A stretch of DNA of 64,000 nucleotides from an uncultured Gammaproteobacteria bacterium. GTDB lineage: Bacteria > Patescibacteriota > Patescibacteriia > Veblenbacterales > UBA10138. The DNA lies in the NCBI GenBank assembly GCA_964348825.1, contig CAYGDX010000001.1:90909-154908 (forward strand), in the 5' to 3' direction. Both the position numbers and the translations under genes were made by a program. Positions 2,985 through 55,562 of this stretch are shown here, piece by piece (the stretch's first letter is position 1; each line of letters opens with the position of its first letter). The notes under the pieces were generated by a model. It made no database searches, was not told the origin of the DNA, and worked only from the letters and a program-made list of their open reading frames with translations.

Positions 2985-3052
2985 TTTTTATAATATTTAA
3001 TGTAATATTTATCATAGAATAGTTTATGGTTTTTTTGTTGTAGAATGGTTAT

Positions 3053-3568
3053 ATGAAGAAACTCATTGTATTTGTTTGTAATGGTAATATCCATCGTTCC
3101 GTTATAGCCGCTTCATCTTTGGGAAAAATTCTTAAAGAGCACAAACTGGATTCGAAGTTTTTGGTTACTTCTTATGGATTACAAGGAACAAAAGGAACGC
3201 GCTTGCCAAAACACAAACGTCTTTCAGAATATCCAAAGGAGTGGAAAGCTACAAAGCCAATTTTAGAGGAGTTTGGCATTGATATAAGCAAACACAGTTT
3301 CCACAAAATTTCGGCTCATATAATGAAAAGGGCGAGTGTTGTTATTGCCATGGATAACAAAGTTTATTTGGGAGCAAAAAATTCTTTAGTGAGGCAATTT
3401 TCTAGTCAAGTATACAAGGTTCATTGTTTTTCTGAACTTACAACAGGTCGTAAGACAATTAAAGATCTTTTGGGTATTGGCGATAAGAAATTGCACAGAA
3501 AAGTCATTGCAAGTATTTATTTTACACTAAATAAAAAATATAATAATATTTTAAGTTGGGTAAAATAA
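3053..3568 (+). CDS. Low-molecular-weight protein-tyrosine phosphatase / ArsC-like fold
   Basis: N-terminal P-loop VFVCNGNIHRS (C-X5-R-S), typical of LMW-PTPs. Confidence 0.55.
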   Translation: MKKLIVFVCNGNIHRSVIAASSLGKILKEHKLDSKFLVTSYGLQGTKGTRLPKHKRLSEYPKEWKATKPILEEFGIDISKHSFHKISAHIMKRASVVIAMDNKVYLGAKNSLVRQFSSQVYKVHCFSELTTGRKTIKDLLGIGDKKLHRKVIASIYFTLNKKYNNILSWVK

Positions 3569-4076: not shown

Positions 4077-4187
4077 GGGTGTAGCGTGTAGGGGGTAGGG
4101 TGTAGTATGCTTGCCCCGTGATCGTCATCAGACGATTTTACGGGGTCATTGCGAGGAGCGAGTAAGGCGAGCGACAAAGCAATCTCT
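4074..4187. repeat. Composite MITE-like repeat: G-rich gggtgtag segment + ccccgt..acgggg hairpin + gtcattgcgag..agcaatc (family A)
   Basis: Same modules recur at 23397-23448, 26011-26100, 26221-26262, 26535-26622, 38466-38545, 52855-52900, 53806-53980. Confidence 0.6.
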
Positions 4188-12649: not shown

Positions 12650-13220
12650 TGTGAAATTCCTTTGTTAATTAATGATTGAATAGTAATAATTTTGTGTATG
12701 CTTTTCCACTAGCCATGCCTTTTGGGTGTGGGTAGAGGATTGAATCGAAACTTGTTGTGCCTCGGGCGCTGTGAGTACCACGCTGGCAATGATTATAATT
12801 TGCAAAATGTTAAAGAACACTAATTTCTCCTTTTTGTTTTTATGATAAATATTTGTGTTCCCCGTAAAGCTCGCTTGCGCTCGCCACGGGGCACTGTTAA
12901 TTTTTTCTAGAATCTATTTTAGAATCTAGGACACAAAAGATGTATAAATATCATCTCCTGTCTTCTTTATTCTAAAATTTTAATTTAAGTTATTTGTTAA
13001 CAAATGCTTACTATCCTTTAATTTAAGTATACCTTATTTAACAATACATACTACCACATTTGTCAATTTCTGTCAAGAGTAGTGTTTTTGTGTATTTTTA
13101 TGCCAATTTTCGTGGTGTAAAATTGATCGAATTGTATTATTTTGATCTGATTGCTATAAAAAAGCCGTAGAAGTGGAGTTGTGTTAGTAAAAAATATGTT
13201 TTATAATATCATTATAATTC

Positions 13221-13273: not shown

Positions 13274-13816
13274 ATGTTAAAACGAACTAAAACAATTAGT
13301 CAGATCATTTTGACCGCGCTTTATGGTAGCGGTTTGGCAATGGTTGAATTTCATAATTTTATCAATGATTTTAGGCGTTGGGGTTATCATTATGAAAGCA
13401 ATCGCGAATGGCAAAATTATTTAAAATACATAAAGAACAAAAAGAAGTCGTATCGCTTATTGTATAATCTAAAAAGAAGCAAATATATTAAAATCAATAA
13501 GACAGGCGATAAGATTATAGTAAGCTTAACTAATAAGGGTAAAATGGCAGCGCTTAAAAATAGTTTATTACAAACTAAAAAGATGTCAGATAAATATACC
13601 GTAGTGATTTTTGATATTCCCGAAACAGCGCGCTTAGCCAGGGTATTATTTAGAAAACTCTTAAAAGAAGCTAGCTTTAAAAAATTACAACAAAGTGTGT
13701 GGATATCGAATTGTGACGCTCGTGATATCATGATTAAATTTATTAAAGAACAAAAAATAGATAAGTGGGTGAATGTATTTTATGCTACCAATTTGTTCAA
13801 GAAGTCGAATTTATAA
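13274..13816 (+). CDS. Hypothetical protein: N-terminal winged-helix-like region + C-terminal Cas2/VapD-like domain
   Basis: C-terminal KYTVVIFDIPETARLARVLFRKLLKEASFKKLQQSVWIS resembles the Cas2 N-terminal strand-helix-strand (xxVVxYDIxx, RRxKVxKxL, RVQxSVF). N-terminal half is basic and wHTH-like. No cas1 or CRISPR array nearby. Confidence 0.35.
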   Translation: MLKRTKTISQIILTALYGSGLAMVEFHNFINDFRRWGYHYESNREWQNYLKYIKNKKKSYRLLYNLKRSKYIKINKTGDKIIVSLTNKGKMAALKNSLLQTKKMSDKYTVVIFDIPETARLARVLFRKLLKEASFKKLQQSVWISNCDARDIMIKFIKEQKIDKWVNVFYATNLFKKSNL

Positions 13817-15674: not shown

Positions 15675-15759
15675 GGTTTTACTTTAGTAATTAATGTATT
15701 AATGGTATAATAAATTGAGAATGACTGATTTTTCAAAAATCCGAAATTTATTTATTAAA

Positions 15760-15838
15760 CACTAGAACATTTAAACATTAGAACATTATTAATAAAAAAC
15801 TTTTTGTTCTTATGATCTAGTGATCTAATGTTCTAGTG
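15760..15838. repeat. Palindromic cactagaac / gttctaatgtt element (family D)
   Basis: cactagaacatttaaacattagaac...gttcttatgatctagtgatctaatgttctagtg. Related copies at 17944-18030, 21878-21912, 22270-22307, 27845-27925, 34888-34975, 43570-43632, 58048-58100, in both orientations. Confidence 0.65.
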
Positions 15839-15860
15839 ATAATTCCTTACTTCAACCATC

Positions 15861-17011: not shown

Positions 17012-17935
17012 ATGGATCCCAATTTATTACCTAATGAATTACGTGTGGGCGAAAAGGAAGAATTGTCACATCCGCCCCAACCAACATCGGTAAAGCCAGA
17101 TGCGATTTTATCATCTAAAGAGAAAGACAGGGTAATTGAGCTTGATATAAATGTAGGTTTGTGGTCAAAAATTAAATCTTGGTTTAATAAAGACGAAGTA
17201 CTAACTAGTGCGGATGACAAATCAGCGCTTGAAAAAGGTGAGGTTGATTTTGGTAAAACTTCGGCTGGTAAAATTTTAGGGATTCCTACCCATCATGGCG
17301 TACCACTTGGTGTAGTGCTCGATGTAAATTTATTGCCGGTTGAATCGCGCCCAATTGAAGAAGCCAAGCGTTATGGTGTGCATTTTTTAGCCGTGGCCGG
17401 AGCAGCTATTTTAGTAGTGATTATTGGTTATGCAATTTTACTAAGTTTAAAATCAGCTAAAGAAGCAGAATATGCCGATTTACAACGTGAAGCAGAAATT
17501 TTAACCACCGATATTACTGGTTTTAATGTCAAGCTTAATGAATTAAAATTAACTGGCCGGCGTATGAAGGTAATTACTGAAATTCTGAGTATGCGTAGCG
17601 ATTGGTTGAAGTTTTTTGATACCTTGGAAGGGTTGATAATGCCTAATGTAAGTTTCACTTCGCTATCGCTTCAATCATCAGGTAATTTTGTACTCGGGGC
17701 CGAAGGTAAAACTGTGAGTGATTTGGCTAAACAATTTTTGGTTTTTCAAGAGGGTAAAGATATTTGGGCGGAAGTGGAAATGGCCGGTGTGAGTTTGGGT
17801 AGTGGATTAGTTGAGGAAGATAGTGGATTAAGTTCTAGTGCTTCCGATTCTACGGCCAGTACAACTTTTGAATTAAAATTAAAACCAGGTTGGCTTCAGG
17901 CAGGAGAGAAAGCGATTGGTAAGAGTGAAGAGTAA
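17012..17935 (+). CDS. pilN: PilN-like type IV pilus inner-membrane assembly protein
   Basis: Position after pilM, single TM helix (FLAVAGAAILVVIIGYAILL) followed by a coiled-coil periplasmic region. Confidence 0.5.
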   Translation: MDPNLLPNELRVGEKEELSHPPQPTSVKPDAILSSKEKDRVIELDINVGLWSKIKSWFNKDEVLTSADDKSALEKGEVDFGKTSAGKILGIPTHHGVPLGVVLDVNLLPVESRPIEEAKRYGVHFLAVAGAAILVVIIGYAILLSLKSAKEAEYADLQREAEILTTDITGFNVKLNELKLTGRRMKVITEILSMRSDWLKFFDTLEGLIMPNVSFTSLSLQSSGNFVLGAEGKTVSDLAKQFLVFQEGKDIWAEVEMAGVSLGSGLVEEDSGLSSSASDSTASTTFELKLKPGWLQAGEKAIGKSEE

Positions 17936-18055
17936 GAGTTTTTCACTAGAACATTAGATCACTAGATCATAAGAACAAAAAGTTTTTTATTAATAATGTT
18001 CTAATGTTTAAATGTTCTAGTGTTCTAATGAATAAGATTTAGAATTTTAATTACT

Positions 18056-33392: not shown

Positions 33393-34877
33393 TTGAAATT
33401 AAATACTATGTCTTTAACCCAATACAATTTATCTGAATTAAGTCAGAAGATACAATCTCAAGAACTTACAGCCCGCGAAGTCGTGGCCGATTATTTAAAA
33501 AAATCAACGGCTGATTTTACGTCTAAAAAATCTTTAGGAGTTTATTTAACTTTGGCCTCAGAGCAAGCATTAGCTCGGGCCTCCGAAATTGATAAAAAAA
33601 TTACTGCAGGCGAAAATGCGGGAGAACTCGCCGGCGTGCCAATTGCAGTAAAAGATATAATTGTAACTCGCGGTATAAACACCACTGCTGGTTCTAAAAT
33701 TTTAAAAAATTATGTACCGCCCTATTCGGCTACAGTAGTGGAAAAATTAGAAAGTGTCGGCGCGATTGTAATTGGTAAAACTAATTGCGACGAATTTGCC
33801 ATGGGTGCTTCAGGTGAGAATTCGGGGTTTCATCCCACTCATAATCCGTGGGATGTGCTCCGCGTACCCGGTGGTTCATCAAGTGGTAGTGCCGCGGCGG
33901 TAGCGGCAGGGTTTGCCCCAGCGGCGCTCGGCACTGATACTGGTGGCTCAATTCGTCAGCCCGCAGCTTTTTGCGGTGTAGTTGGTTTTAAACCAACTTA
34001 TGGCCGCGTGTCGCGTTTTGGATTGATGGCCATGACGTCGTCGCTTGATCAAGCTGGGCCCTTTGCGCGTACAGTAGCTGATGCATCATTGTTACTTAAA
34101 ATTATGTCAGGTGTCGATAAGCGCGATGCTACTAGCGTTAACACTTCCGTGCCTGATTATCCAGCTTTATTAAATAAAGATATTAAAAAAATAAAAATCG
34201 GTGTGCCTAAAGAATTTTTTGGCGAAGGTCTTGTGCCTGAGGTAAAAAAAGTGGTTGAAGAGGCGATTGATAAATTAGCCGAACTTGGCGCAGAAATTAT
34301 ACCAGTTAGTTTACCGAGTATGCCTTATGCCCTCGCCGCTTATTATATTTTATGTCCAGCCGAAGTAAGTACAAATTTAGCGCGCTTTGATGGTTTGAAG
34401 TATGGAGAAAGTTTAAGAGATAAAGATTTATTTACTACTTTAGCTAAAACGCGCGGGGAATTATTTGGTCGCGAAGTAAAGCGTCGCATAATGCTGGGTA
34501 CCTTTGTTTTATCGGCTGGTTATTATGATGCTTATTATAAATCAGCCCTCGCCGCACGTGAAGCAATTAAGAGTGATTTTAATCGTGTATTTAAAGAAGT
34601 AGATATACTAGCTACGCCAACTACACCAACTACGGCTTTTGAGCTGGGGAGTAAAAATCAAGATCCGCTCGCTATGTATTTGGCTGATGTTTATACTGTG
34701 CCCGTAAATATCGCAGGGTTACCAGCTATTTCCGTGCCATGTGGATTATCAGCCGGACTCCCAGTTGGTTTACAGTTGATTGGTAATATGTGGCAGGAAG
34801 AGAAGATTTTGCAAATGGCGTATAATTATGAACAAGCAACGGAGTGGAGTAAATTAAGGCCAAAAATAAAATCTTAA
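33393..34877 (+). CDS. gatA: Glutamyl/aspartyl-tRNA amidotransferase subunit A
   Basis: Amidase signature GGSSSGSAAAVAAG...GTDTGGSIRQPAAFCG. Alternative start at 33408 (MSLTQ). Confidence 0.9.
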   Translation: MKLNTMSLTQYNLSELSQKIQSQELTAREVVADYLKKSTADFTSKKSLGVYLTLASEQALARASEIDKKITAGENAGELAGVPIAVKDIIVTRGINTTAGSKILKNYVPPYSATVVEKLESVGAIVIGKTNCDEFAMGASGENSGFHPTHNPWDVLRVPGGSSSGSAAAVAAGFAPAALGTDTGGSIRQPAAFCGVVGFKPTYGRVSRFGLMAMTSSLDQAGPFARTVADASLLLKIMSGVDKRDATSVNTSVPDYPALLNKDIKKIKIGVPKEFFGEGLVPEVKKVVEEAIDKLAELGAEIIPVSLPSMPYALAAYYILCPAEVSTNLARFDGLKYGESLRDKDLFTTLAKTRGELFGREVKRRIMLGTFVLSAGYYDAYYKSALAAREAIKSDFNRVFKEVDILATPTTPTTAFELGSKNQDPLAMYLADVYTVPVNIAGLPAISVPCGLSAGLPVGLQLIGNMWQEEKILQMAYNYEQATEWSKLRPKIKS

Positions 34878-34997
34878 ATCTTATTCATTGGAAAACTAGA
34901 ACATTTAAACATTAGAACATTTTAATAAAAAACTTTTTGTTCTTATGTTCTAGTGATTTAATGTTCTAGTGAAAATTATTACTCTTACTAAATAACC

Positions 34998-36534: not shown

Positions 36535-36590
36535 GAGTTTTTTAAAAATCCGAAATTCGAATATCTAAATCCTAAATAAATTCCAAAAGT

Positions 36591-36760
36591 CGTGCGGCCT
36601 CGTCGTAGGGTTTGTACAGAGCGCAAGGCAAACGAGCGTCCGGTTCGGGCGTGCTGTGGTAGTTGTGCATAGCCCGAACCAGCTCGTTTGGCGAGCACTG
36701 TTCAAACCCGAAGACACAGGCCGCGATTCTTGGTTACTTCTATTAAAGAAGTAACAAAAT
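36591..36760 (+). repeat. Structured about-170-nt element (family C), forward orientation; possible small ncRNA or cruciform-forming MITE
   Basis: Long stem caaacgagcgtccggttcgggc...gcccgaaccagctcgtttg plus terminal hairpin ggttacttct-attaa-agaagtaacc. Related copies at 37667-37853 (reverse), 39899-40170 (with about 100-nt hairpin insertion), 52622-52850 (diverged). Confidence 0.5.
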
Positions 36761-38680: not shown

Positions 38681-39496
38681 ATGTTTACCTTACTCCATAA
38701 CACCATTCCTAGTGCCATCGCTGTAACCATCGGTCCCGTGCCAATTCGTTGGTACGGGATTATGTTAACCATCGCGGTTTTCGCGGGTTATTTTTTAGCG
38801 CGACATTATTTTGGTAAAGCGGGACACAACAAAGCCAAATTTGATAATTTATTTTTGCCGCTAGTGTTAATTGGTTTGCTGGGCGCGCGCCTCACTAATG
38901 TTTTTTTGTTTGAATGGTGGTACTTTAAAAATCACTTATCAGAAATTTTTAATATTTGGCAAGGCGGGTTAGCTTTCCACGGCGCAATTATTTTTGGTGG
39001 AGTTTATTTGTGGCAGTGGTGTAAAAAGCAAAGCATAAATTTTTTATCACTCCTTGATATTTTAGCGCCAGCACTCACAGTGGGACAGGCGATTGGTCGA
39101 TTTGGGAATTATTTTAATCAAGAGCTTTTTGGGTTGCCCACTAATTTGCCGTGGGGAATTCCGATTGCGGAAGATCTCCGCCCCAGCCAATTTAGCATTC
39201 AAGAATATTTTCACCCTACATTTTTATACGAATCAATTGGATTAATAATTTTAACTATTATTTTATTATTACTCGGGCGGCGCACCAAACCAGCTGGTTC
39301 AATTTTTGCTTATTATTTAATTGGTAGTGGGCTATTGCGCTTCGCTTTAGAGTTTATTCGAGTAGATGAACAGTTAATTGTTTGGGGTATTAGGATTGGA
39401 TTACTTATTGGATTTATAACAATCTTAGTTGGTTTGTTTTTGTTATTATATAGAATATATAAGAGTAAAAATGTAAAAATAAAAATCCCTAATTAA
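38681..39496 (+). CDS. lgt: Prolipoprotein diacylglyceryl transferase
   Basis: Lgt signature IRWYGIMLTIAVFAGYFLA and GRFGNYFNQELFG. Multi-TM. Confidence 0.85.
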   Translation: MFTLLHNTIPSAIAVTIGPVPIRWYGIMLTIAVFAGYFLARHYFGKAGHNKAKFDNLFLPLVLIGLLGARLTNVFLFEWWYFKNHLSEIFNIWQGGLAFHGAIIFGGVYLWQWCKKQSINFLSLLDILAPALTVGQAIGRFGNYFNQELFGLPTNLPWGIPIAEDLRPSQFSIQEYFHPTFLYESIGLIILTIILLLLGRRTKPAGSIFAYYLIGSGLLRFALEFIRVDEQLIVWGIRIGLLIGFITILVGLFLLLYRIYKSKNVKIKIPN

Positions 39497-39520
39497 CTTA
39501 GGGATTTTTAGTTTTTCATT

Positions 39521-39565
39521 TGGCGGGCCCGGCCGGATTCGAACCGGTGATCTTCTCCGTGACCC
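39521..39565 (-). repeat. Duplicate of the 3' half of tRNA-Asp (anticodon-stem 3' strand through CCA)
   Basis: Reverse complement tcacGGAGAAGATCACCGGTTCGAATCCGGCCGGGCCCGCCA is identical to the 3' 42 nt of the intact tRNA at 39619-39696. Preceded by hairpin ccccgtagagacacgcttgtcttctacgggg instead of a tRNA 5' half. Confidence 0.6.
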
Positions 39566-39618
39566 CGTAGAAGACAAGCGTGTCTCTACGGGGCACAGCA
39601 GTGAGGTATTTGATTATT

Positions 39619-39696
39619 TGGCGGGCCCGGCCGGATTCGAACCGGTGATCTTCTCCGTGACAGGGAGACGTGTTAACCGGGCTACACCACGGGCCC
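39619..39696 (-). tRNA. tRNA-Asp (anticodon GUC), CCA encoded
   Basis: Reverse complement folds as GGGCCCG-TG-GTGT-AGCCCGGTTA-ACAC-G-TCTCC-CTGTCAC-GGAGA-AGATC-ACCGG-TTCGAAT-CCGGC-CGGGCCC-G-CCA. Perfect 7-bp acceptor stem, U33, A37. One A.C mismatch closing the T-stem. Confidence 0.7.
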
Positions 39697-39739
39697 AGCA
39701 AATAATCAAATTAATTTTGTTTAGGGCTACTGCGCCCCG

Positions 39740-39790
39740 TAGACCAAAAGGTTCTTCGGGGCACCACGGGCCCAGCAAAGGAAAAACAGA
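39740..39790 (-). repeat. Duplicate of tRNA-Asp 5' end interrupted by a ccccg..cgggg hairpin
   Basis: Reverse complement GGGCCCGTGGTG-[ccccgaagaaccttttggtctacgggg cgca]-GTAGCCC matches the first 12 nt of the tRNA. After the hairpin it resumes with D-loop nt GTAGCCC, then diverges. Confidence 0.5.
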
Positions 39791-39898
39791 CGCTTTATTA
39801 ATATAGCAGAAACAATATTTATTTCAAGGGGTATATTAAAAATCCTAAATCCGAAACCCAAACTTCTAAATAAATCAAAAATCCCAATTCCCAAAAGT

Positions 39899-40170
39899 CG
39901 TGTGGCCTCGTCGTAGGGTTTGTACAGAGCGCAAGGCAAACGAGCGTCCGGTTCGGGCGTGCTGTGGTAGTTGTGCACCCGCCTGCCGAAGCTGTTTCCC
40001 CAAGTTAACGTACGATGATTAGTATACTTTAGTTAACTATTAGAAATACTAAAACTAAGTTGGGCTAGCGGCGGGCAGGTAGCCCGAACCAGCTCGTTTG
40101 GCGAGCACTGTTCAAACCCGTAGACAAAGGCCGCGATTCTTGGTTACTTCTACTAAAGAAGTAACAAAAT
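39899..40170 (+). repeat. Family C structured element with about 100-nt hairpin insertion
   Basis: Same 5' (cgtgtggcctcgtcgtagggtttgtacagagcgcaaggcaaacgagcgtccggttcgggcgtgctgtggtagttgtgca) and 3' (agcccgaaccagctcgtttggcgagcactgttcaaacccg...ggttacttctactaaagaagtaac) arms as 36591-36760. Inserted stem-loop cccgcctgccg...cggcgggcaggt. Confidence 0.5.
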
Positions 40171-40174
40171 CGGT

Positions 40175-40203
40175 TTGACAACTTTCGAAATTTCCTGTAT
40201 AAT
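40175..40203 (+). promoter_or_regulatory. Consensus sigma-70-type promoter (TTGACA-17 nt-TATAAT)
   Basis: ttgaca at 40175-40180, 17-nt spacer, tataat at 40198-40203. Immediately abuts the 3' end of the family C element. Confidence 0.6.
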
Positions 40204-40237
40204 AGATATATAAATAATAAAACAAATACAAAAATTT

Positions 40238-40423
40238 ATGCGGCCGGGATTTCAATCCAATTTTCAAGCTAATTCTAAGAAGCGCGTAGGCGCTGGTTCT
40301 AACTATGTTTGTACATGGCGCAAACCAACCAGTACTAACCTTTGGCCGAGAGTTTGGCAGCAAATTCGTCGCGGCGCACTTTGGATTTTATTTGATGAAA
40401 CTTTTACTTCCACCCACCACTAA
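40238..40423 (+). other. Leader region: 61-codon basic Trp-containing ORF or small ncRNA, ending inside a terminator loop
   Basis: No Shine-Dalgarno. ORF stop codon TAA (40421-40423) lies in the loop of the first terminator hairpin. Region bounded by a perfect promoter and tandem terminators. Confidence 0.3.
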
Positions 40424-40470
40424 GGTGTGGTGTTTTTATTTTAAGCCGTAACACACGGCTTAGTTTTGTT
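40415..40470 (+). terminator. Two tandem rho-independent terminators directly upstream of the 923-aa gene start
   Basis: caccac-taaggt-gtggtg followed by tttttatttt, then aagccgt-aacac-acggctt followed by agttttgtttt. The second ends 3 nt before ATG at 40473. Confidence 0.6.
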
Positions 40471-40472
40471 TT

Positions 40473-43244
40473 ATGTCATCAGAAAGCGCATTATCATCGA
40501 TGGATAATAGCAGACAACAAGTAGGCGTAGATACTCAAGGAGTAGATGTTTTTAGTATTACGGATGGGAAAAAAGTTACAATAGATCATGAGTCTCAACG
40601 AATTAGAAATACTCCTGATTATGCTAAATATCGAGAGGACTTGGATGAAATTTTTGACTATTGGAAAAATGATCCAGATGGTAGAGTAAGTTTGTTTTCG
40701 ACGTTCAATAAAAAAACAAATGTAGACGAAGAATTATTATCTTTAGCGGCTACGTACTTTGGTGAAGACAAAGAAGTGTTAAAGGCAGTAGAAGAAGATG
40801 AAGTAGAGCCGAGACAGTCGAGTCAGTTTCATAGTTATTTAGATGGAATCAAAAGAGTCATTTCTAAATTAGACAAGCCCAAATTTGTTTTGGAATTAAT
40901 TCTTGGTAGTAATTATAAATACATTGAGGACGAAGGTGAACCAGAAGAAAAGGAAGTGCACATGTTTGTTGATGCTAAAAATAAGGGCAGTATTATAGAA
41001 CTGGCCATAGCGGATTATTTAACAGGTGTGAATTACAGCCCTGTGTCAGAGGTAGAAAGTGATAATGGTAAAATTATACCTGAACCAGTAGTGTCAAATT
41101 CAGATGATACAACTAAAACTGTAACAAATGAGCAGGTTGACGCTGTCACTTCAACAGTAAAGTCAGATAAAGTTGAAGTAAAAAGCTCTGGAGCTGATAG
41201 TAGCCCATTTAAAGCACCCACCCGCGAAGAAATTTTACAAAATAAACCAAGTGAATTAAAAGATCCCTCAAAGGTAGTTAAAAAAGTCGATGATGATAAG
41301 GATAAGGGTAGTAAAGAAAATAAAAAAACAGAGCCGGCTAAAAACGAGAAAAAAGGTGGAGACGGTGGTGATGGAAAAGAAAATGAAAAATCTCGACTCA
41401 AAGAAGAGATTCAATGGTTTTTGCGTCAGGAAAATCTGAAGGGTTTAACCGTTGAACAAATTGAATGGCAGTTTCTAGAGGGAAATTTGTCTTCGTATTA
41501 TAAAGATAAGGATTATTTAAATTCATTGATGGTTCATAGAAATGTTTGGCGAACTGAAGTGGAATCATTTATTGAAACCATTAAACAAGATAAGTATTTC
41601 TCGGCTAAAAAGTTGATAGAAGAATCAGCTGCCTTTTTGGCGCCGTATTCAACTGAAAAACATCAAGCGGGAGAGTGGATCGTATACGATAAAATAAAAT
41701 ATGATTATGATTTATTACCAAAAGAAGTGGTGGATGAAAAAGAAGTAGCGGAAGGAAAAAAGGGCCAAAAAGATTTTCAAATAAAAGCTTTAGAGCAGAT
41801 TTTTAGTAAAATAGTTTATAGTGGCAAATGGAAAAAAGGTAGTCAGGATCAGCCGGAGTTGAAAGGTTCCGAGTTAGATAAAGATTTAGATGTGCGCTTA
41901 TGTTTGTGGTTATTGGAGCGGGCTGGTTTTAGCACAAACTCAAAAGCTGTTGATGTACCAGAAAGTCTAGTGGATGGCGCAACTTTTGATGCTGGTAGCA
42001 GAAGTGGTTTAAGTATTGATAAAAGTTTTGATTGGAAGTTAGAAGATGGTCAGGCAAAACGCGGAAAAAAACAGTTAGGCGCGATTTTTGATAATCACCA
42101 ACCACAAAATGGTTTGCATACTTCGGCAGCATATCAGCTTAATTTTTTCTTACGTGCAGCCGAAGAAATGGGATTATTTGATAACGAAGATAATGATCAT
42201 ACAAAAAAGAATCAAAGCGAATACATTAAATTAGATAGAAAAGTAGTTGATATGATGGTAAATATGTCGATTGATGAAGACAATGGTCGATTAGTAAAAG
42301 ACATTAAGCAGTTTAACGAGAGTGACAAAAATCTACGTGGTTTAGTTGGTAGAATTAAAACCTCTAAATTTGATGATTTACATGATTTTATTATTACTGT
42401 ATTACAATCTGATAGGAATAAAAGTTTGATAGAAAGAGATAATACTAAGAAAGTATATAACAATATATTGGATTATCCATTATCTGATAAATGGTTAGAA
42501 AAATTTAATTTAATCTGGCCAGATACAAAAAATAAAGGTAAATACACTGGTTGGGCATATCAACAAAAAGGCAATATCGAGCAGACTCACCGGATATTTA
42601 TGGTTGAGGGCAGTAAAGATAAATTAAAGAGTGATGAAGAGTTAGAAAAAGAAGGTTGGTTAGTAAGATTTTCTGATAAGAGTGGTAAAGATTTGCGCTT
42701 TGTAGTAAATATTCCTGGATTTGAGGGAGATTTTTATGGCGGCCACGTAGCGGCTCGAGCGCTTGGTTTTGATGGTATGATAAAATATACTCCAGAAAAG
42801 GCAAGTTTTTTAATTAATGTTTTAAAACCCGAATTATCGCTTAATAAAATTGCCGGAGATATTAAACAAGGTCAAATGGTTCGTGATACATTAGATATTA
42901 AACCTCCTAATGCTCAGGAGCTTAAGACAACATTACGTGAGATGTTAAATACATTATCACCCGGTTTGGCTGATAAGGCGCAAGGTAAGCTCAAAGAGTA
43001 TTTATTATTAGAAGACAAGGTGGAAAATGATTGGCAACAAGTAGATAAAGAATTTGTAAAACAAGAGTTAAAAACTTGGTACGATAAATTACCAGCCAAT
43101 AAAAAGCCAACTGATTTAGAGAGTCAGAATCAGGAATTTGAATGGCTTTTGGAATATAAATTAGTTAGCTTGAAAAGTAAGTTGTATAATGAATATATGG
43201 AATTATATAAAAAAATTAAGGATCTAAAATCTAAAGTTAAATAA
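40473..43244 (+). CDS. Hypothetical large acidic protein (923 aa), no signal peptide, no recognised domain
   Basis: Long uninterrupted ORF, Lys/Glu/Asp-rich with low-complexity KDKGSKENKKTEPAKNEKKGGDGGDGKENEK segment. Confidence 0.5.
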   Translation: MSSESALSSMDNSRQQVGVDTQGVDVFSITDGKKVTIDHESQRIRNTPDYAKYREDLDEIFDYWKNDPDGRVSLFSTFNKKTNVDEELLSLAATYFGEDKEVLKAVEEDEVEPRQSSQFHSYLDGIKRVISKLDKPKFVLELILGSNYKYIEDEGEPEEKEVHMFVDAKNKGSIIELAIADYLTGVNYSPVSEVESDNGKIIPEPVVSNSDDTTKTVTNEQVDAVTSTVKSDKVEVKSSGADSSPFKAPTREEILQNKPSELKDPSKVVKKVDDDKDKGSKENKKTEPAKNEKKGGDGGDGKENEKSRLKEEIQWFLRQENLKGLTVEQIEWQFLEGNLSSYYKDKDYLNSLMVHRNVWRTEVESFIETIKQDKYFSAKKLIEESAAFLAPYSTEKHQAGEWIVYDKIKYDYDLLPKEVVDEKEVAEGKKGQKDFQIKALEQIFSKIVYSGKWKKGSQDQPELKGSELDKDLDVRLCLWLLERAGFSTNSKAVDVPESLVDGATFDAGSRSGLSIDKSFDWKLEDGQAKRGKKQLGAIFDNHQPQNGLHTSAAYQLNFFLRAAEEMGLFDNEDNDHTKKNQSEYIKLDRKVVDMMVNMSIDEDNGRLVKDIKQFNESDKNLRGLVGRIKTSKFDDLHDFIITVLQSDRNKSLIERDNTKKVYNNILDYPLSDKWLEKFNLIWPDTKNKGKYTGWAYQQKGNIEQTHRIFMVEGSKDKLKSDEELEKEGWLVRFSDKSGKDLRFVVNIPGFEGDFYGGHVAARALGFDGMIKYTPEKASFLINVLKPELSLNKIAGDIKQGQMVRDTLDIKPPNAQELKTTLREMLNTLSPGLADKAQGKLKEYLLLEDKVENDWQQVDKEFVKQELKTWYDKLPANKKPTDLESQNQEFEWLLEYKLVSLKSKLYNEYMELYKKIKDLKSKVK

Positions 43245-43959: not shown

Positions 43960-46900
43960 ATGTCTGAAACCCCCAAACCATCACCAACTGAAAATCAAAC
44001 TAAGGTTGAGCTTAAATCTCATCCAGAACTTCGCCGCGATGTGTTAAAAGAAAAAGGTGTGGGAGTCTCGAAATTACTTGATAGTATTTATGATAAGGTG
44101 AAAGGTGGGTTAACTGGATTTAAGGATTTGATGACTGAATATACAAGCTTACTTGAAAAAGATAAAGCAGATACTTCTGTTACTCAACAAACAGCTATTG
44201 ACGAAGCTGAAACGGAAATTAAGAGAGTGCAGCGGCAAGTGGAAGAAGATAAAAAGGAATTGCAATATAAATTAGCAGAAATTGCTGAAGTGAGGGATAA
44301 CTTCAATAAAGTTGTTTGGAGGGAAGAGTTAAGACGTGACCCGATATTGAATGACGAATATGGTGTTAAATTTAGTCGAATTTTAAGCGCTGACGAAGAA
44401 AAAGTTATTGATCAAGTTTTAGACGATCAGAGATTAGAAATTGGAAAAAAGGCCGAAACAACTAGTAGGTTTAAAAAAATTCCGATTAATGAAAATGCGG
44501 AACGTAGTGATTATGTTGCTAATTATATTGCCAATGGTTTGTTGCGTCCAGAATATATAGAAGAAAGAAAGAGAGTTTATAAAAAGAAAGGACTGCCAGT
44601 TGAAGGTGTAAAAGTTGAGCCAGTTGTTGATCCTGTACCACAAATTATAGCCGAACCCGCAGCACCAGATGTCGTTATTACGCCAGTTGAACCAGAGGTT
44701 ATTTTAAATACCGAATCTGTTGCGCCAGTAGTTAATCCAACTGGCCCTGAAGTCGTGTCAGTTATTCCGACTGCTGAAGTAGAGCCGGTTGTTTTGTCAG
44801 AGGGGGAAGAAACAAAAAAAGTGAATGAATATTTAGAAAAGATTAATAGAGGTGGAATTTTAACTCCTGAAGAGCAAATATACTTAAATGAATTTACAAG
44901 AAAGCAGGAAGAAAGAGATCAAGCTGGTCGCGCACCAATTATTTCCACCGAAACTCCACCAGCTACCACAGAAGCCACTCCAAAAAAATGGGGTAAGGTT
45001 GAGGTGGCTAAATTAATGAATGAATTGAAGTTAAAAGATTTACCAGAATTAAAATATGATTGGCAAGTTAAATCTAATCAAGTGGAGGTGTTAGATGATA
45101 ATGGTAGTGTCAAGCGTGATAAAAAAGGTAATGCCATCACTGAATCATTTAACGAATTTACAGTAAATCTTAAATCTGAAAGTAAGGATGAACTTGCTAA
45201 CTTGTTAGATAAAAAAAATATACCAGAAGAAATAAAGAGTGATATTCTAAAAAATTTAATACAGACGATTGAAGATAGAATGTCTAAAAGTTTAGATGGG
45301 CAAGCTAAATTAGAAGAAGCCAAATCATTAAAATATCACAAGAAGCAAATTGGTTTGCAGTTCGGATTGCAATTAGCATTGAGTGGTGGGATTGCTATGA
45401 CACGTTGGCTATCTGGCGTCGCGGAAGCGGCTAGTCATGCTATTGGCAATGTAGCGCGAGTCGGTGGTTTTAGTGTTATGGGCGCAGGTGCTGGTGGCGG
45501 TCGGTTTTTGATTAACCGTGGATTGATGCCAGAATTAAATAGTTTAATATTAGGTAAAGAGAATGAATCATCTTTGCATAAAGCGGGTGTAGAAGTGGTG
45601 AATAAATTTTTTACCACTGATACAGTTAAAACTTTAGGTAAACAGGTTTTGAGTGAATTATTGGCTGAAAAATTAAAAGGTCATGTGGCTTTAACGTCAG
45701 AAACTAATATTGATACTATAAAAAGTTTATTAAAAGAGCATTGTGGATCGGCTTTTGAAAATGAAGCTCAAATAGAATCTTTTAGTCGGGAACTGGCTGC
45801 CATTGAACAGATTAAACAAGGTAATCAAAAACAGTTGGCTAAGTACATGGAGAGGTTGAAATTAAACGGTTTTTTAAATAGCGCTACTAAATCAGCTATC
45901 GCTGGTGGTACCATGGCCGCAGTAATGGCTTGGGTGCCTGGGTTAGGACAAGTTTGGGGTGGCGCCTTTGGTGCATTCACAATGGGTGGGCAAATTAAAT
46001 CAGCTTTGCGGCGCATGGGTATTGAAGAGCGTTATCAAATAATGCGTGAACAGATTTTAGGATTAGAGCAGAATAGAAGTGTAACCAAAAAGATTTTAAA
46101 AAAAGTAAGTTTTGGTTGGGGTGAAAAAAAGATTGCTGGTGCTGGTAATATTATGACTGAGGTTAATGGTCAAAAACGGGCCAACGAGGTGATGGCTTAT
46201 TTAGTTAGCGGTTTATTGGTGAATGATCCATTGCTTCAAGCACGCGCTGAAAGTTTAATTCAGCAAGCGGCCGAGCAGGGTATTATGCCTGAGCAAGCGG
46301 TGGTTGAAGCTAGAGTAAAAGCTTTAGAAAAAAAGTTAAAAATAGAACGTGCTACTGAAAATGTGGCTTATGCCGTAGGTACAGCAGTTGGCGCGGCAAC
46401 AAGTTGGGCGGCCATGGCGGCTAGTGAATTATTTAAAGGTGGGTCTGGCAGTAAGGTAGTAGTAGAAGCTGGCACTAGTAAGGGTTCACAAAATGCAGGT
46501 GAATTAAATACCGAAACTCATAATATAAATAAAGGGCCAGGAGTTCAAGCTGAACATCCGCCAATCGCCATCAAAATTGAAGGAAATATTGATACCGTGA
46601 GTGAAGCTGTTGATAAAGCTTTGCATGGCGCACCAACTACTACTCAAGATAATTTTGTTCACAAAGAATTAGGTGATGATGTTGCTATTACTGATTCTAA
46701 TCGTCACGGTTTGGTTGTTCAAGCAGTGCGTGAATTTAGTATCCGTAATATAAAAATGGGCGATGGTAATGACTTACTAAATCGTATTCATAATGGCGAT
46801 ACCGTGTTGCTTAAAAGTGATGGTGCAGTAGAAGTTAAAGGTACTTCTGGCATTAATCCAGAAGCTGTGGCCGAAAGTACTCTTCGTAAATCAGCGGCTG

Positions 46901-48936
46901 AACTTCACACTGAAACACAAACTGTTGAGGTAGAAAATAATCCACTTAAAAATGCAATTTGGCAAGAAGGATTAGTAGATGGTAAGTCAGTTAAATTTAC
47001 CGAGTTACCATTTGATTATAAAACTCACGATTTAAATGCTTATGCGCAAACCGATTCAGATACTTGGAATGAAGCGCGAAATTTACCTGATACAATTGAA
47101 CTTCACGATCGCGCCGGTAACGTAATTGATTATTGTCCGGTAGACCCTAGTGATACACGTAGTTTGAGCGAAGTATTGGCGGAAGCTAATAAGAGTTTTG
47201 GTACAGTTGATTCTCGTCTTCACGAAATTACCGAGGCCATGCCAAAATCTGGTTATTTTATGTCGGCCGGATCTAGGACTGAAATTGCTAGTTGGGCAAA
47301 AGTAGATATTCATAGTGGCGCACCGCTTTCCGAAACACAAATACATGATTTAAATCATTTAGATAATATTGTTGGTAATCACGCCACTGAATATTTAGGT
47401 AATTCAGCTTTTAAGTCGTTCTTAAGTTCTAATTTTGAAAATTTAAATGCTTCACGCGCTTGGGCTGATTTTCAAGCGGTAAAGTCATTACACGGTCAAG
47501 GGTTTGGGAATGTGGATATAAAAAGTGTTGATTTTATAAACAAAACTGCGGGCTGGGTGCGGATTGGCGAAAATAATTCCGGTAGTGGTTTTATGGCGCA
47601 AGTGGAAAATGGTGCGCTTCATACTTCATTGAAATCACCACTCACCGGCTCATCGATTGAAGTTTCCTTACCCAAAGATAAGGTGTTTAATTTTGAGATG
47701 GTGAACCGAGGCGTGAATCAAGCGATTGAGCAACAATCAGCGGAAATGAATGTAAAAAGTAATTTAGAAAGTATGGTAGGAAGCTCAGAGGCGAATGAAA
47801 TTTTGAAATTACCAGCTGGTTCAAATATAGAGCAGGAAATTTTGGATATTGCTAAAAATAAAGTTTTGTTTGTCACTGTGTCCGATGGCAACGGCCCTGA
47901 AGCAGTGAAATATTTAAATGGTTTAACTGATTTAACTAAAGGTGAGGGAACGCTTGCAGAACAATTAAGCAAAGCGGTGGTGCAAGGCAGGGTAGCGAGT
48001 GCAGTAGAATCAGTCAAATCAACTCCCGAGGTTGTTTATAAATCAACTGGAGATTTTAAAACTGAAGCTGGGTTTAAATCTGGAGTGGTAGTACCGCAAG
48101 ACGAAATAAACCCAAGTCGCCAAAATCCAGAAGAAGTGATAAAGCAAGCCCAAGTTGATATTGATAAACAAACTATAAATGCTATGAAAGGTGAGGGTAA
48201 ATATGCGTATGAGCCAAAGCCAGTAGAATTAAAATCTCAAACGCATCAAGATATAATAAGGGAAGAAGTTAAGCAAGATGTTAATTTAGCTGAGCAGGCT
48301 GGGGCTGGGGGCACAGCTGATGTTGCTGAACACGCCAGTGATGTATTTAACGAGCTAGATAATACTCAAGCCGCTTATGAGGCGCTTCACGATACTTCAC
48401 TTTCCGCAGCTGATAAATTCGCTGTCTTGATGTCGCTTAAATTAACTGATGGCGGTCGGCCGTATATGTTTGAAGGTGGCACTGAAGGTATTAGCTTAAA
48501 AGATGGTAAATATTTGTATTATGATCATGGCACAGCCCATGAATTAACACCGGATAATATAAATAAAATTGCTAGTGGCGAAATAGAACAAACTACTCAG
48601 GTTGATGCTGAAAAAACTTCAGTGGTTGAACAAGTAGAAACACCAATAGATAATGTTTCTACAGAGTTGAAAGATATTTTAGGGGATCACCTAAAAGGTA
48701 TTACACCTGATAACGTGTCTGATTATTCGGCCTTCTTTAATGGTTCGGCTGATCAAGCTAAATTAGCTTTTGATCATTTAGGTGAAGTAATTCGTGGTGG
48801 TGGTGATATAAAGAGTCAGGTACTTGCTTCACCAGAATTAACTTCTGCCACTAAAATAATTTTACAAGTGGAAGGTGGTGCCTTGGGTAATCCAGCAGCT
48901 AAAGAATTGTATAAAGATTTGTTTAGTAATAAATAA
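43960..48936 (+). CDS. Giant hypothetical protein (1658 aa) with internal glycine-zipper hydrophobic segments; tape-measure-like architecture
   Basis: Coiled-coil N-terminal third. Central Gly/Ala-rich hydrophobic segments (IGLQFGLQLALSGGIAMT..., AIAGGTMAAVMAWVPGLGQVWGGAFGAFTMGG, VAYAVGTAVGAATSWAAMAA). Long acidic C-terminal half. No signal peptide, no catalytic motif recognised. Confidence 0.5.
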   Translation: MSETPKPSPTENQTKVELKSHPELRRDVLKEKGVGVSKLLDSIYDKVKGGLTGFKDLMTEYTSLLEKDKADTSVTQQTAIDEAETEIKRVQRQVEEDKKELQYKLAEIAEVRDNFNKVVWREELRRDPILNDEYGVKFSRILSADEEKVIDQVLDDQRLEIGKKAETTSRFKKIPINENAERSDYVANYIANGLLRPEYIEERKRVYKKKGLPVEGVKVEPVVDPVPQIIAEPAAPDVVITPVEPEVILNTESVAPVVNPTGPEVVSVIPTAEVEPVVLSEGEETKKVNEYLEKINRGGILTPEEQIYLNEFTRKQEERDQAGRAPIISTETPPATTEATPKKWGKVEVAKLMNELKLKDLPELKYDWQVKSNQVEVLDDNGSVKRDKKGNAITESFNEFTVNLKSESKDELANLLDKKNIPEEIKSDILKNLIQTIEDRMSKSLDGQAKLEEAKSLKYHKKQIGLQFGLQLALSGGIAMTRWLSGVAEAASHAIGNVARVGGFSVMGAGAGGGRFLINRGLMPELNSLILGKENESSLHKAGVEVVNKFFTTDTVKTLGKQVLSELLAEKLKGHVALTSETNIDTIKSLLKEHCGSAFENEAQIESFSRELAAIEQIKQGNQKQLAKYMERLKLNGFLNSATKSAIAGGTMAAVMAWVPGLGQVWGGAFGAFTMGGQIKSALRRMGIEERYQIMREQILGLEQNRSVTKKILKKVSFGWGEKKIAGAGNIMTEVNGQKRANEVMAYLVSGLLVNDPLLQARAESLIQQAAEQGIMPEQAVVEARVKALEKKLKIERATENVAYAVGTAVGAATSWAAMAASELFKGGSGSKVVVEAGTSKGSQNAGELNTETHNINKGPGVQAEHPPIAIKIEGNIDTVSEAVDKALHGAPTTTQDNFVHKELGDDVAITDSNRHGLVVQAVREFSIRNIKMGDGNDLLNRIHNGDTVLLKSDGAVEVKGTSGINPEAVAESTLRKSAAELHTETQTVEVENNPLKNAIWQEGLVDGKSVKFTELPFDYKTHDLNAYAQTDSDTWNEARNLPDTIELHDRAGNVIDYCPVDPSDTRSLSEVLAEANKSFGTVDSRLHEITEAMPKSGYFMSAGSRTEIASWAKVDIHSGAPLSETQIHDLNHLDNIVGNHATEYLGNSAFKSFLSSNFENLNASRAWADFQAVKSLHGQGFGNVDIKSVDFINKTAGWVRIGENNSGSGFMAQVENGALHTSLKSPLTGSSIEVSLPKDKVFNFEMVNRGVNQAIEQQSAEMNVKSNLESMVGSSEANEILKLPAGSNIEQEILDIAKNKVLFVTVSDGNGPEAVKYLNGLTDLTKGEGTLAEQLSKAVVQGRVASAVESVKSTPEVVYKSTGDFKTEAGFKSGVVVPQDEINPSRQNPEEVIKQAQVDIDKQTINAMKGEGKYAYEPKPVELKSQTHQDIIREEVKQDVNLAEQAGAGGTADVAEHASDVFNELDNTQAAYEALHDTSLSAADKFAVLMSLKLTDGGRPYMFEGGTEGISLKDGKYLYYDHGTAHELTPDNINKIASGEIEQTTQVDAEKTSVVEQVETPIDNVSTELKDILGDHLKGITPDNVSDYSAFFNGSADQAKLAFDHLGEVIRGGGDIKSQVLASPELTSATKIILQVEGGALGNPAAKELYKDLFSNK

Positions 48937-55026: not shown

Positions 55027-55408
55027 GGGGGTGTTTACAATTTGCTAGTTCATTAAAATTATTTTCGGCAGGTGGTAGTGAGATCTACCTAAAAAGCTCA
55101 ACCTACAAATGCCAATTCATTTGTCGCTAAAATGAAGAATGCTTTTGCATCTTTATCTTTAGCACCAGTTATGGCCTAAAATCCATAACCGTTTGTTTAG
55201 CCAATGCTCAATAAGTTAAACAAGCGTCATTCATTGAGCTGTGATATGCTATAGTTGATACTTATGTAGCAGTCAAGAACTTTAAGTGTCGGCATTTTAG
55301 AATTTTGTGCGGTTTTTATCTAAAATTTCCTACTTAAATCACACTGAACCTGGAGCCGAAGGTAGTAGTTTGAATTACACACGGGTGCAATTCCCGTCAT
55401 CTCCACCA
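55027..55408 (+). ncRNA. ssrA: Putative tmRNA (ssrA), about 380 nt
   Basis: Directly downstream of smpB. 3' end cgggtgcaattcccg (T-arm-like) + catCTCCACCA (tRNA-Ala-like acceptor 3' strand, discriminator A, CCA). 5' GGGGGTG can pair with CATCTCC including a G3:U70-type wobble. Internal candidate tag ORF gcc aat tca ttt gtc gct aaa atg aag aat gct ttt gca tct tta tct tta gca cca gtt atg gcc TAA (ANSFVAKMKNAFASLSLAPVMA*). Confidence 0.45.
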
Positions 55409-55562
55409 CGTAAAAATCGAGCTATCAAGCGAGATTTTTACGTGCCCCGTGGCACGAACCAAGGTGAGTGCTTTACGGGGCTTCCTTTAGGTAGTAGCTC
55501 GATTCACGTGGCACAGCCTCGTAAAGTCTGAAGACCGCGAGGCAGGCCATCACAACTTTTGT

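Follow-up and report, generated by a model that had tools for sequence, protein, structure and literature searches.

What does it mean when an intact bacterial tRNA gene is bracketed by exact copies of its own two ends? The question is posed by a tRNA-Asp(GUC) gene in a 64,000-nucleotide (nt) stretch of DNA from an uncultured bacterium (contig CAYGDX010000001.1, positions 90,909 to 154,908; hereafter the window, whose own numbering is used throughout). The only tRNA that ARAGORN predicts in the window is this tRNA-Asp(gtc), on the minus strand at 39619-39696; Rfam agrees, scoring it 60.8 bits as a tRNA. Positions 39518-39563 are identical to 39616-39661 (46-nt direct repeat, 100%), repeating tRNA positions 35-76 together with G34 and 3 nt of trailer just 52 nt from the gene. 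Likewise, positions 39762-39779 are identical to 39685-39702 (18-nt direct repeat, 100%; tRNA positions 1-12 and 6 nt of leader). Each partial copy abuts a CCCCG...CGGGG hairpin (39563-39593 and 39735-39761), and the intact gene has complementary flanks of its own (arms 39608-39629 and 39690-39711, 22 nt, 91%). Chance comes nowhere near explaining exact repeats this long (46 and 18 nt) inside 300 nt of DNA with 38% GC. An assembly artefact is rejected, as independent assemblies of different lineages have the same arrangement; in one independent assembly (L001, ERR3094292) the break falls inside the 3′ repeat, as a real repeat would lead one to expect. A transfer-messenger RNA (tmRNA) identified with Rfam at 55027-55408 shows that the host is a bacterium, and relatives of the neighboring Lgt protein put the window in Patescibacteria, whose members are ultra-small.

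An initial annotation had described the intact gene, the 3′ duplicate, the joined hairpins and the extended complementary flank, and these descriptions hold apart from minor differences in coordinates. Its 5′ duplicate stands for the 12 nt (plus leader), which are exact; the D-loop letters assigned to the same copy (TAGCCC) lie at 39724-39729, on the hairpin's far side from the 12-nt piece. It had also treated the partial copies as duplications rather than parts of a second, unusually structured tRNA. What was found is essentially the latter: they are parts of a second, interrupted tRNA-Asp gene that surrounds the intact one and has probably ceased to be a tRNA. This enclosing gene, here termed the shell, is complete and carries three inserts, and the two partial copies are its ends. 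On balance, the locus is probably a gene within a gene: a working tRNA-Asp nested in an older shell that was split by a tRNA-bearing module and by hairpins. The anatomy is well supported, and a predicted insulating and processing helix around the inner gene reasonably so. Read along the minus strand, the elements of the locus are as follows.

39800-39827, minus strand: promoter-like site TTGAAA-16-TATATT (with TG), upstream of the outermost 5′ piece
39774-39787, minus strand: outer leader (GTTTTTCCTTTGCT), pairing with the outer trailer at 39511-39520 (minimum free energy structure, pairing probability)
39762-39773, minus strand: shell segment 1 (GGGCCCGTGGTG), tRNA-Asp positions 1-12
39730-39761, minus strand: hairpin element copy 1, inserted at 12/13; palindrome 39735-39761 (27 nt), 5-nt tail CGCAG 39730-39734, orientation opposite to copy 2
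39718-39729, minus strand: shell segment 2, TAGCCC and TAAACA, relics of positions 13-17a and 20a-24; G18G19 missing
39697-39711, minus strand: leader arm of the 14-bp helix extending the intact tRNA's acceptor stem (inverted repeat, covariation, folding)
39619-39696, minus strand: intact tRNA-Asp(GUC) with encoded CCA (ARAGORN, Rfam), the same sequence as the single tRNA-Asp of the sister genome L002
39608-39618, minus strand: trailer arm of the 14-bp helix (AATAATCAAAT; inverted repeat, covariation)
39599-39606, minus strand: shell segment 3 (CCTCACTG), relic of positions 27-34, with A at 31
39563-39598, minus strand: hairpin element copy 2, inserted at 34/35; palindrome 39563-39593 (31 nt, stem of 9-10 pairs), tail CTGTG 39594-39598
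39521-39562, minus strand: shell segment 4, tRNA-Asp positions 35-76 with CCA, the same sequence as in the intact gene
39511-39520, minus strand: outer trailer (AATGAAAAAC), pairing with the outer leader
39480-39510, unstranded: bidirectional terminator-like hairpin, shared with lgt, which would end the minus-strand transcript
38681-39496, plus strand: lgt, the neighbor sharing this terminator with the tRNA locus

The joined shell segments amount to 74 nt and agree with the intact tRNA at 72 of 78 positions; they span tRNA positions 1-25 and 27-76 and nowhere overlap. In the shell, G18G19 and G26U27 are missing, two positions are mismatched (A31, C27) and only three anticodon-stem pairs can form. 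Its inserts are a 32-nt hairpin unit at 12/13, an approximately 126-nt segment at about 25/26 that is the intact tRNA with its flanking leader/trailer helix, and a 36-nt hairpin unit at 34/35. The outer pieces have complementary flanks of their own (39511-39531 and 39767-39787, 21 nt, 86%) that differ in sequence from those of the intact gene, and in the partition function of the full precursor the outer 5′ piece pairs with the outer 3′ piece at a probability of 0.99. Given their own complementary flanks and this mutual pairing, the outer pieces belong together. The promoter-like site at 39800-39827 is the only one on the minus strand in 39300-40500; because it stands before the outermost piece and the terminator follows the last, the whole of approximately 310 nt would be one transcript.

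Duplicated tRNA 3′ ends have a familiar explanation, the one given in the initial annotation, namely att-type footprints of an integrase insertion at a tRNA gene that is now an excision or deletion scar. The stretch from the anticodon loop to the tRNA 3′ end is a classic crossover region of tRNA-targeting tyrosine integrases, the 3′ repeat here begins in the anticodon loop and extends to the 3′ end, and the region differs between the window and the sister genome. Here, however, the duplication extends to the 5′ end, positions 13-34 survive as relics between the two pieces, pieces and relics together cover the whole tRNA once, and the flanks of the two pieces are mutually complementary. The tyrosine integrase suspected on the contig did not appear: the Pfam scan, covering 40 of the 49 open reading frames (ORFs) of at least 120 residues across the 64 kb, contained no integrase, recombinase or transposase. 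Nor was an integrase gene seen at related lgt-tRNA-Asp loci, and none of the nine such loci with intergenic DNA holds a gene-bearing element between the repeats. Scans of viral contigs with gapped junction patterns gave 0 matches. The locus resembles attL/attR sites and integrase-less remnants of the cis-mobilizable element (CIME) kind in having a direct repeat of the 3′ part beside an intact tRNA gene, and differs from them in that the 5′ part is repeated too, the repeats enclose the gene, and integrase and cargo are absent. A scar of this kind is extremely improbable. The nested layout is probably a recurring way to break and replace a bacterial tRNA gene, not an integrase scar, and annotators should note that partial tRNA copies beside an intact gene are not always such scars.

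Recurrence was assessed in 14 distinct loci in which lgt adjoins a tRNA-Asp of the same type; loci other than the window are referred to by L numbers. In the sister, L002, Lgt is 85% identical and the flanks are collinear with 84-90% nucleotide identity. This locus has one plain tRNA-Asp of identical sequence in opposite orientation, with no hairpins or partial copies, and lacks approximately 530 nt that are present in the window between 39464 and 40172. Shell pieces joined to hairpins occur in 6 of the 14 loci (the window, L003, L202, L216/L217, L006, and L214), whose Lgt proteins are only 44-54% identical, both to one another and to that of the window. Seven, including the sister, are without a shell or any repeated tRNA sequence; in L212 only the last 20 nt of the tRNA-Asp and a 32-nt terminator are repeated (2888-3110). 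The nested architecture, right junction and matching hairpin positions are found in L003, L202, and L216, and in part in L006 and L214. In L003 (Kerfeldbacteria), removal of six inserts leaves a shell identical to the inner tRNA at 68 of 75 positions, with its own acceptor stem (GGACCAG/CTGGTCC) and its own 11-bp leader/trailer complement (AAAATTAAATC and GATTTAATTTT); it too lacks G18G19, yet is nearer to a canonical cloverleaf than the window shell. L202 has two 5′ shells, one enclosing the other like a doll. The L216 shell is identical to its inner tRNA at 57 of 75 positions, and a 5-nt direct repeat, GTCTC, flanks the inserted segment in L216/L217. In L006, a degenerate, nearly complete copy lies upstream, and the 3′ copy found downstream repeats 80 nt of trailer as well; L214 has a 3′ shell only.

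The similarities extend to detail. The 3′ shells align as GTCTC(A/C)C(T/G)GC-YTG-[CCCCGTA...CGGGG]-TCACGGAG, a second 3′-shell hairpin at 44/45 with the conserved loop GAGCACAGCTC is present in L003, L202, and L214, and the trailer AAGAGGATTTAAT is common to L003, L214, and L216. A counterpart of shell segment 2, TA(AA)TAGCCC, occurs in L003 and L202, which also share A31 of segment 3. On its right side, the inner module stops directly at G26-TCTC in L003, L202, and L216; at the corresponding junction of the window, the relic CCTCACTG starts 2 nt past the helix. A promoter/leader arrangement like that of the window precedes the outermost 5′ piece in L003, L216, and L202, and precedes the plain tRNA-Asp genes of L002, L209, L210, and L212. 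Every nested locus keeps a conserved promoter/leader before its outermost 5′ piece, at exactly the place it has in plain loci. Shell content varies widely between lineages: the T arm is kept, replaced or lost, and the number of inserts ranges from one to six.

Could the pieces have arisen without any insertion, by separate local tandem duplications through slippage or template switching at GC-rich hairpins, the leader/trailer complementarity having evolved later? Local partial duplications do also occur at the tRNA-Asp locus (L006, L212, L214). The near-full degenerate upstream copy and trailer-bearing 3′ copy of L006, the lone 3′ partial copy of L214, the duplicated last 20 nt and terminator of L212, and a similar 3′-end duplication of a tRNA-Gly gene in L056 all speak for such a process. 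In the window, L003, and L202, however, the 5′ and 3′ pieces do not have random ends but complement each other (1-25 and 26/27-76), and the right junction is identical in four lineages. The outer leader pairs with the outer trailer, and these two differ from the inner pair, which tandem copies would not yield, and the GTCTC direct repeat of L216 resembles a target-site duplication. An origin of the window locus by three simple tandem copies was rejected, as the outer and inner flanks differ and pair outer with outer and inner with inner. Tandem duplication as the whole explanation is quite improbable.

Nesting could have come about by either of two events, insertion of a tRNA-bearing palindromic module or a duplication provoked by hairpins. 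Insertion of the module into a resident gene is favored by the complementary extents of the 5′ and 3′ shell, the constant junction and the distinct outer and inner flank pairs. In the proposed sequence of events, an older tRNA-Asp gene (the shell) would keep the original promoter, leader, trailer and terminator of the locus. It would have been split near 25/26 by a module consisting of a complete tRNA-Asp bracketed by a leader/trailer inverted repeat, and two copies of a GC-rich palindromic repeat of approximately 32-36 nt, facing opposite ways, would have interrupted it at 12/13 and 34/35 as well, these hairpin invasions falling before or after insertion of the module. The whole unit of approximately 310 nt would be transcribed from the outer promoter, and plain loci such as the sister's would result from recombination between the direct repeats, with collapse of the structure. 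The working tRNA-Asp would be the inner gene. Most likely the shell is a remnant in decay and not a tRNA, given the missing G18G19 and the gathering of single-nucleotide polymorphisms (SNPs) in one lineage, where L216 and L217 differ by three SNPs in 3807 nt, two of them in the approximately 45-nt 3′ shell. Its tRNA-like parts would have been kept similar to the inner gene by recent copying or gene conversion.

How an inner tRNA might fold among identical competing strands is suggested by the helix that brackets it. This 14-bp helix runs on from the acceptor stem, and in an alignment of six tRNA-Asp genes with 16-nt flanks, one from each of six lineages, 11 of its 14 pairs show compensatory double changes. 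The tRNA-sense strand has four G.U and zero A.C pairs. Such covariation is the mark of selection acting on an RNA helix. Complementarity between leader and trailer was surveyed in 75 tRNAs of the examined loci and tested against shuffles. At least 11 contiguous flank pairs (11-12) are found only in the tRNA-Asp genes of the window, L003, L006, and L202 (p <= 0.005), all of which are enclosed or flanked by shell copies; the survey rejects leader/trailer pairing as a general feature of Patescibacteria tRNAs. Partition-function folding was performed on a 316-nt window precursor with unmodified tRNA and is hence only indicative. With the helix intact, the inner 5′ strand pairs with the inner 3′ strand at 0.99. 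When the inner leader arm is destroyed in silico, the inner acceptor stem falls from 0.99 to 0.15 in the full precursor, and when both leaders are destroyed the inner 5′ strand pairs with the outer 3′ copy at 0.42. In a module folded without the shell, the same arm mutation has next to no effect (0.99 to 0.98), and for the plain L002 gene the value is 0.99. In silico, the helix therefore appears to be required for folding of the inner tRNA only in the presence of the shell.

These folds suggest that the helix acts as insulation: the inner acceptor strands would be made to pair with each other instead of with the shell copies, so that the working tRNA is kept apart from the identical strands around it. 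Together with the 7-bp acceptor stem, the 14 bp form a duplex of approximately 21 bp, which is a likely site of tRNA excision from the precursor: an RNase III-like cleavage, followed by RNase P and 3′ trimming, would probably free the tRNA. Bacterial rRNA operons have leader/trailer processing stems that are RNase III sites. The duplex resembles these in length, in being built from sequences flanking a stable RNA and in its maintenance by compensatory change, and differs in that it flanks a single tRNA and that cleavage is here predicted only. A covarying leader/trailer helix on a bacterial tRNA, probably guiding both folding and processing, is of interest in itself. A 17-nt complementarity between 39585-39601 and 39727-39743, whose mismatches are G.U on the tRNA strand, was also considered as a long-range RNA helix, and proved to be the inverted hairpin copies.

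What are the hairpins? Copies 1 and 2 are one element, a 5-nt tail and a palindrome, in opposite orientations. The initial annotation's suggestion of hairpin MITEs (miniature inverted-repeat transposable elements) targeting tRNA sequence is upheld in part: the hairpins belong to a dispersed family, strongly concentrated in tRNA-Asp remnants in several genomes, of which three further copies lie in the window.

4114-4145, plus strand: dispersed hairpin-family copy (GCTTG-CCCCGT...ACGGGG), intergenic
12860-12891, minus strand: dispersed hairpin-family copy, intergenic
55445-55480, plus strand: dispersed hairpin-family copy, 37 nt past the tmRNA 3′ end
39891-40170, unstranded: palindromic MITE-like element, arms 39891-39977 and 40080-40170, 97-99% identical to a contiguous 178-nt copy at 36583-36760

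All five hairpin copies of the window (39563, 39735, 4114, 12860, 55445) have YTG-CCCCGT...ACGGGG in common, and further copies occur in L003, L202, L209, L214, and L216. The sister L002 lacks both tRNA-locus copies, though the whole locus is rearranged there. No consistent target-site duplication was seen at hairpin junctions, and no transposase for the hairpins (for example RAYT, the REP-associated tyrosine transposase, or DDE) was present among the 40 ORFs scanned. The MITE-like element is a second copy of the 178-nt GC-rich palindrome, which has no Rfam match; it is split at the palindrome center by a 102-nt AT-rich insert (39978-40079) and forms part of the approximately 530 nt missing from the sister genome. 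This split copy indicates that small palindromic elements are mobile in the lineage, inserting into one another.

Small palindromic repeats that invade genes are known as repetitive extragenic palindromes (REP) and bacterial interspersed mosaic elements (BIME), RAYT-associated repeats, Rickettsia palindromic elements and the GC clusters of yeast mitochondria (PMC4478555). Like REP/BIME, Rickettsia elements and GC clusters, the hairpins are short and GC-rich in an AT-rich genome, and their stem bases are conserved while their tops vary. They are scattered and may lie within genes for RNA or protein, and nested palindrome insertion is also seen (window MITE 39891-40170). Unlike REP/RAYT repeats, they have no associated transposase among the window ORFs and no clear target-site duplication, and they are strikingly concentrated in the remnants of one tRNA gene.

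Several observations were made on these and other repeats. The tmRNA is followed by two hairpins in 55409-55560, one of which is the family member at 55445-55480; what looked like a partial repeat of the tmRNA 3′ end beyond this hairpin was rejected, its alignment score being at chance (p = 0.54). Directly after the hairpin at 4114-4145, positions 4146-4185 read TCATTGCGAGGAGCGAG...CGACAAAGCAATC, which we take to resemble a repeat common in genomes of uncultured bacteria. One arm of the 178-nt element has the 16-mer GCTTCGGCAGGCGGGT in common with a hairpin inside the L202 shell. Another repeat family, of approximately 105-125 nt, occurs in both orientations in the window (15744-15844, 17928-18052, 34875-34992) and in L002 (380-502, 1977-2101). 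Its copies in the sister are 90-98% identical but occupy other intergenic sites, suggesting that the family has moved recently.

Heavy interruption of tRNA genes is seen as a speciality of archaea and algae. To our knowledge, only group I introns and, rarely, group II introns interrupt bacterial tRNAs. The present locus is a new form of disrupted bacterial tRNA gene: short hairpins and another tRNA gene break it at as many as six positions, and at least six deep lineages of Patescibacteria have the pattern. No description of a nested, hairpin-ridden bacterial tRNA gene was found in the literature. The junction 16-mer ACGGGGTCACGGAGAA was used in a metagenome scan giving at least 120 loci, and in none among the matches listed is a hairpin followed by the tRNA-Asp 3′ half. 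Archaeal disrupted tRNA genes include multi-intron, split and tri-split genes and the transposing introns of Thermoproteales (PMC10714607, PMC4390854). As in these, several non-canonical positions are interrupted by short structured inserts, one insert family occupies different positions, and leader sequences pair to unite the pieces. In contrast to them, the host is bacterial, the bulge-helix-bulge (BHB) motif is lacking, inserts of the same kind are found outside RNA genes too and in either orientation, a complete working tRNA lies in one insert, and the interrupted gene looks non-functional.

The likeness raises the possibility that the shell is itself a functional, multiply interrupted tRNA-Asp, its hairpins and inner-tRNA segment being introns removed by a non-group-I pathway, as in archaeal multi-intron tRNAs. 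The inserts, at 12/13, 17/18, 25/26, 34/35, 44/45, and 65/66, fall mostly in cloverleaf loops or junctions, and the L003 "exons" match the inner tRNA at 68/75 positions and have an acceptor stem with compensated changes. Introns are moreover frequent in RNA genes of Patescibacteria (PMC13011429), where group I introns have been described at 35/36 of tRNA-Asp and tRNA-Asn (Nakagawa et al. 2026, PMC13011429). The phylum and the tRNA are the same, and the insertion lies beside the same anticodon-loop position. Unlike those introns, however, the 34/35 insert is a 36-nt hairpin, not a ribozyme, with no match to the Rfam Intron_gpI family, its junctions lack the U/omega-G signature, and an intact intron-less gene is present. 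Rfam reports for 39400-40500 only the tRNA and three chance-level matches, with no group I catalytic core or other credible family and no intron match at E<=1. A group I intron was rejected on the lack of a ribozyme core, the hairpin inserts being merely 32 and 36 nt.

An archaeal-type intron was likewise rejected. No BHB is found at the junctions, which predicted structures place inside or at the end of continuous helices with bulges of at most 1 nt, the 5′ junction lying within a continuous helix. The two hairpins are oppositely oriented and the same hairpins also stand in intergenic DNA. Neither a splicing endonuclease nor a ligase was seen among the window ORFs scanned. Joined, the window "exons" are without G18G19 and G26U27, retain only three anticodon-stem pairs and form no canonical cloverleaf, and the intact copy renders the shell dispensable. 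A functional shell is very unlikely. If the shell were functional after all, or if the inner module were mobile, a new mechanism would be at hand.

A further alternative is that shell and hairpins are a selected structured RNA, co-transcribed with tRNA-Asp as a scaffold for processing or stability, a regulator or a decoy, and for this reason persist across deep lineages. Shell-specific sequence and hairpin positions are conserved at 44-54% Lgt identity, and hairpin stems change in compensation (CCCCG/CGGGG to CCACG/CGTGG in L216, and the stem of the 44/45 hairpin in L202). The outer acceptor stem of L003 has two compensated pairs relative to the inner one. The folding z score of the 291-nt region is -8 on the tRNA strand, but the plus strand folds equally well (z = -8.05), like any palindrome-rich DNA. 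Half of the 14 loci, the sister among them, are shell-less and an eighth (L212) has only the 20-nt 3′-end repeat, the SNPs of L216/L217 are enriched in the 3′ shell, and shell content is very different between lineages. A selected RNA is judged unlikely.

Part of the same evidence nevertheless weighs against a working tRNA nested in a decaying shell. The shell-specific A31, GCYTG tails, 44/45 loop GAGCACAGCTC and trailer AAGAGGATTTAAT are conserved, and the hairpin stems show compensatory changes between lineages, at an Lgt identity of approximately 50%, at which neutral remnants should not stay recognizable. These features point either to a shell under selection or to a cassette that has spread horizontally. 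The opposite tRNA orientation in L002 requires an event beyond simple collapse. L006 and L214 resemble tandem partial copies more than nesting. L209 has a leader/trailer helix and no shell, so that the helix is not strictly tied to nesting and may predate or outlive it. The folding of unmodified tRNA limits what can be drawn from the pairing probabilities, and no enzyme able to insert the module or the hairpins was identified among the window ORFs scanned. The patchy distribution of shells can be explained by an ancient origin with repeated collapse, or by cassette transfer between lineages.

It is tempting to speculate that the arrangement is a maintained system rather than debris, a proposal in two versions that, taken together, remain distinctly unlikely. 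In the first, a selfish cassette, the helix-flanked tRNA-Asp module, would land at 25/26 of the resident tRNA-Asp, kill the gene and replace its function; repeated hits would produce the doll-within-doll of L202, and exchange between lineages the patchy distribution. In the second, Patescibacteria would tolerate hairpin inserts in tRNA transcripts or remove them by a non-group-I route, and the shell would be the counterpart of archaeal multi-intron genes, with a tRNA inside an intron. Under the preferred gene-within-gene explanation, the locus offers a concrete, testable case of an essential single-copy tRNA gene that was invaded and then rescued.

Further variation was noted among tRNA loci of the relatives. 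In some shell copies, the T arm (GCCGGTTCGAATCCGGT) is not interrupted but swapped for a GC hairpin of the same length (TCCCGCG..CGCGGGA) in L006 (2385-2406, 2657-2672) and L214 (2638-2653), and these replacement hairpins are homologous between the two distant lineages. The orientation of tRNA-Asp relative to lgt flips repeatedly, together with its promoter (plus in L002 and L203; minus in the window, L204, L207, L209-L212, and L216), and CCA is encoded in some tRNA-Asp alleles and not in others. In L056 (6085-6373), the last 17 nt of tRNA-Gly(TCC) and its trailer are repeated approximately 200 nt downstream, and degenerate tRNA-like sequences lie upstream of tRNA-Gly(GCC) in L064/L075 (around 535-905).

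The genes flanking the window locus encode three DsbA-like proteins, Lgt, SmpB, IF3, ArgRS, IleRS, type IV pilus components, LigA, and GatA. Directly downstream of the tRNA locus are two very large plus-strand ORFs without a Pfam match, 40473-43244 (923 residues) and 43960-48936 (1658 residues), the first of which is conserved in the sister genome L002. A 180-residue protein encoded at 13274-13816 on the plus strand has the central Cas2-like domain of PaaX and a weak match to Cas2, and a similar protein is encoded at 3870-4445 of L202, approximately 1 kb past the tRNA-Asp locus there.

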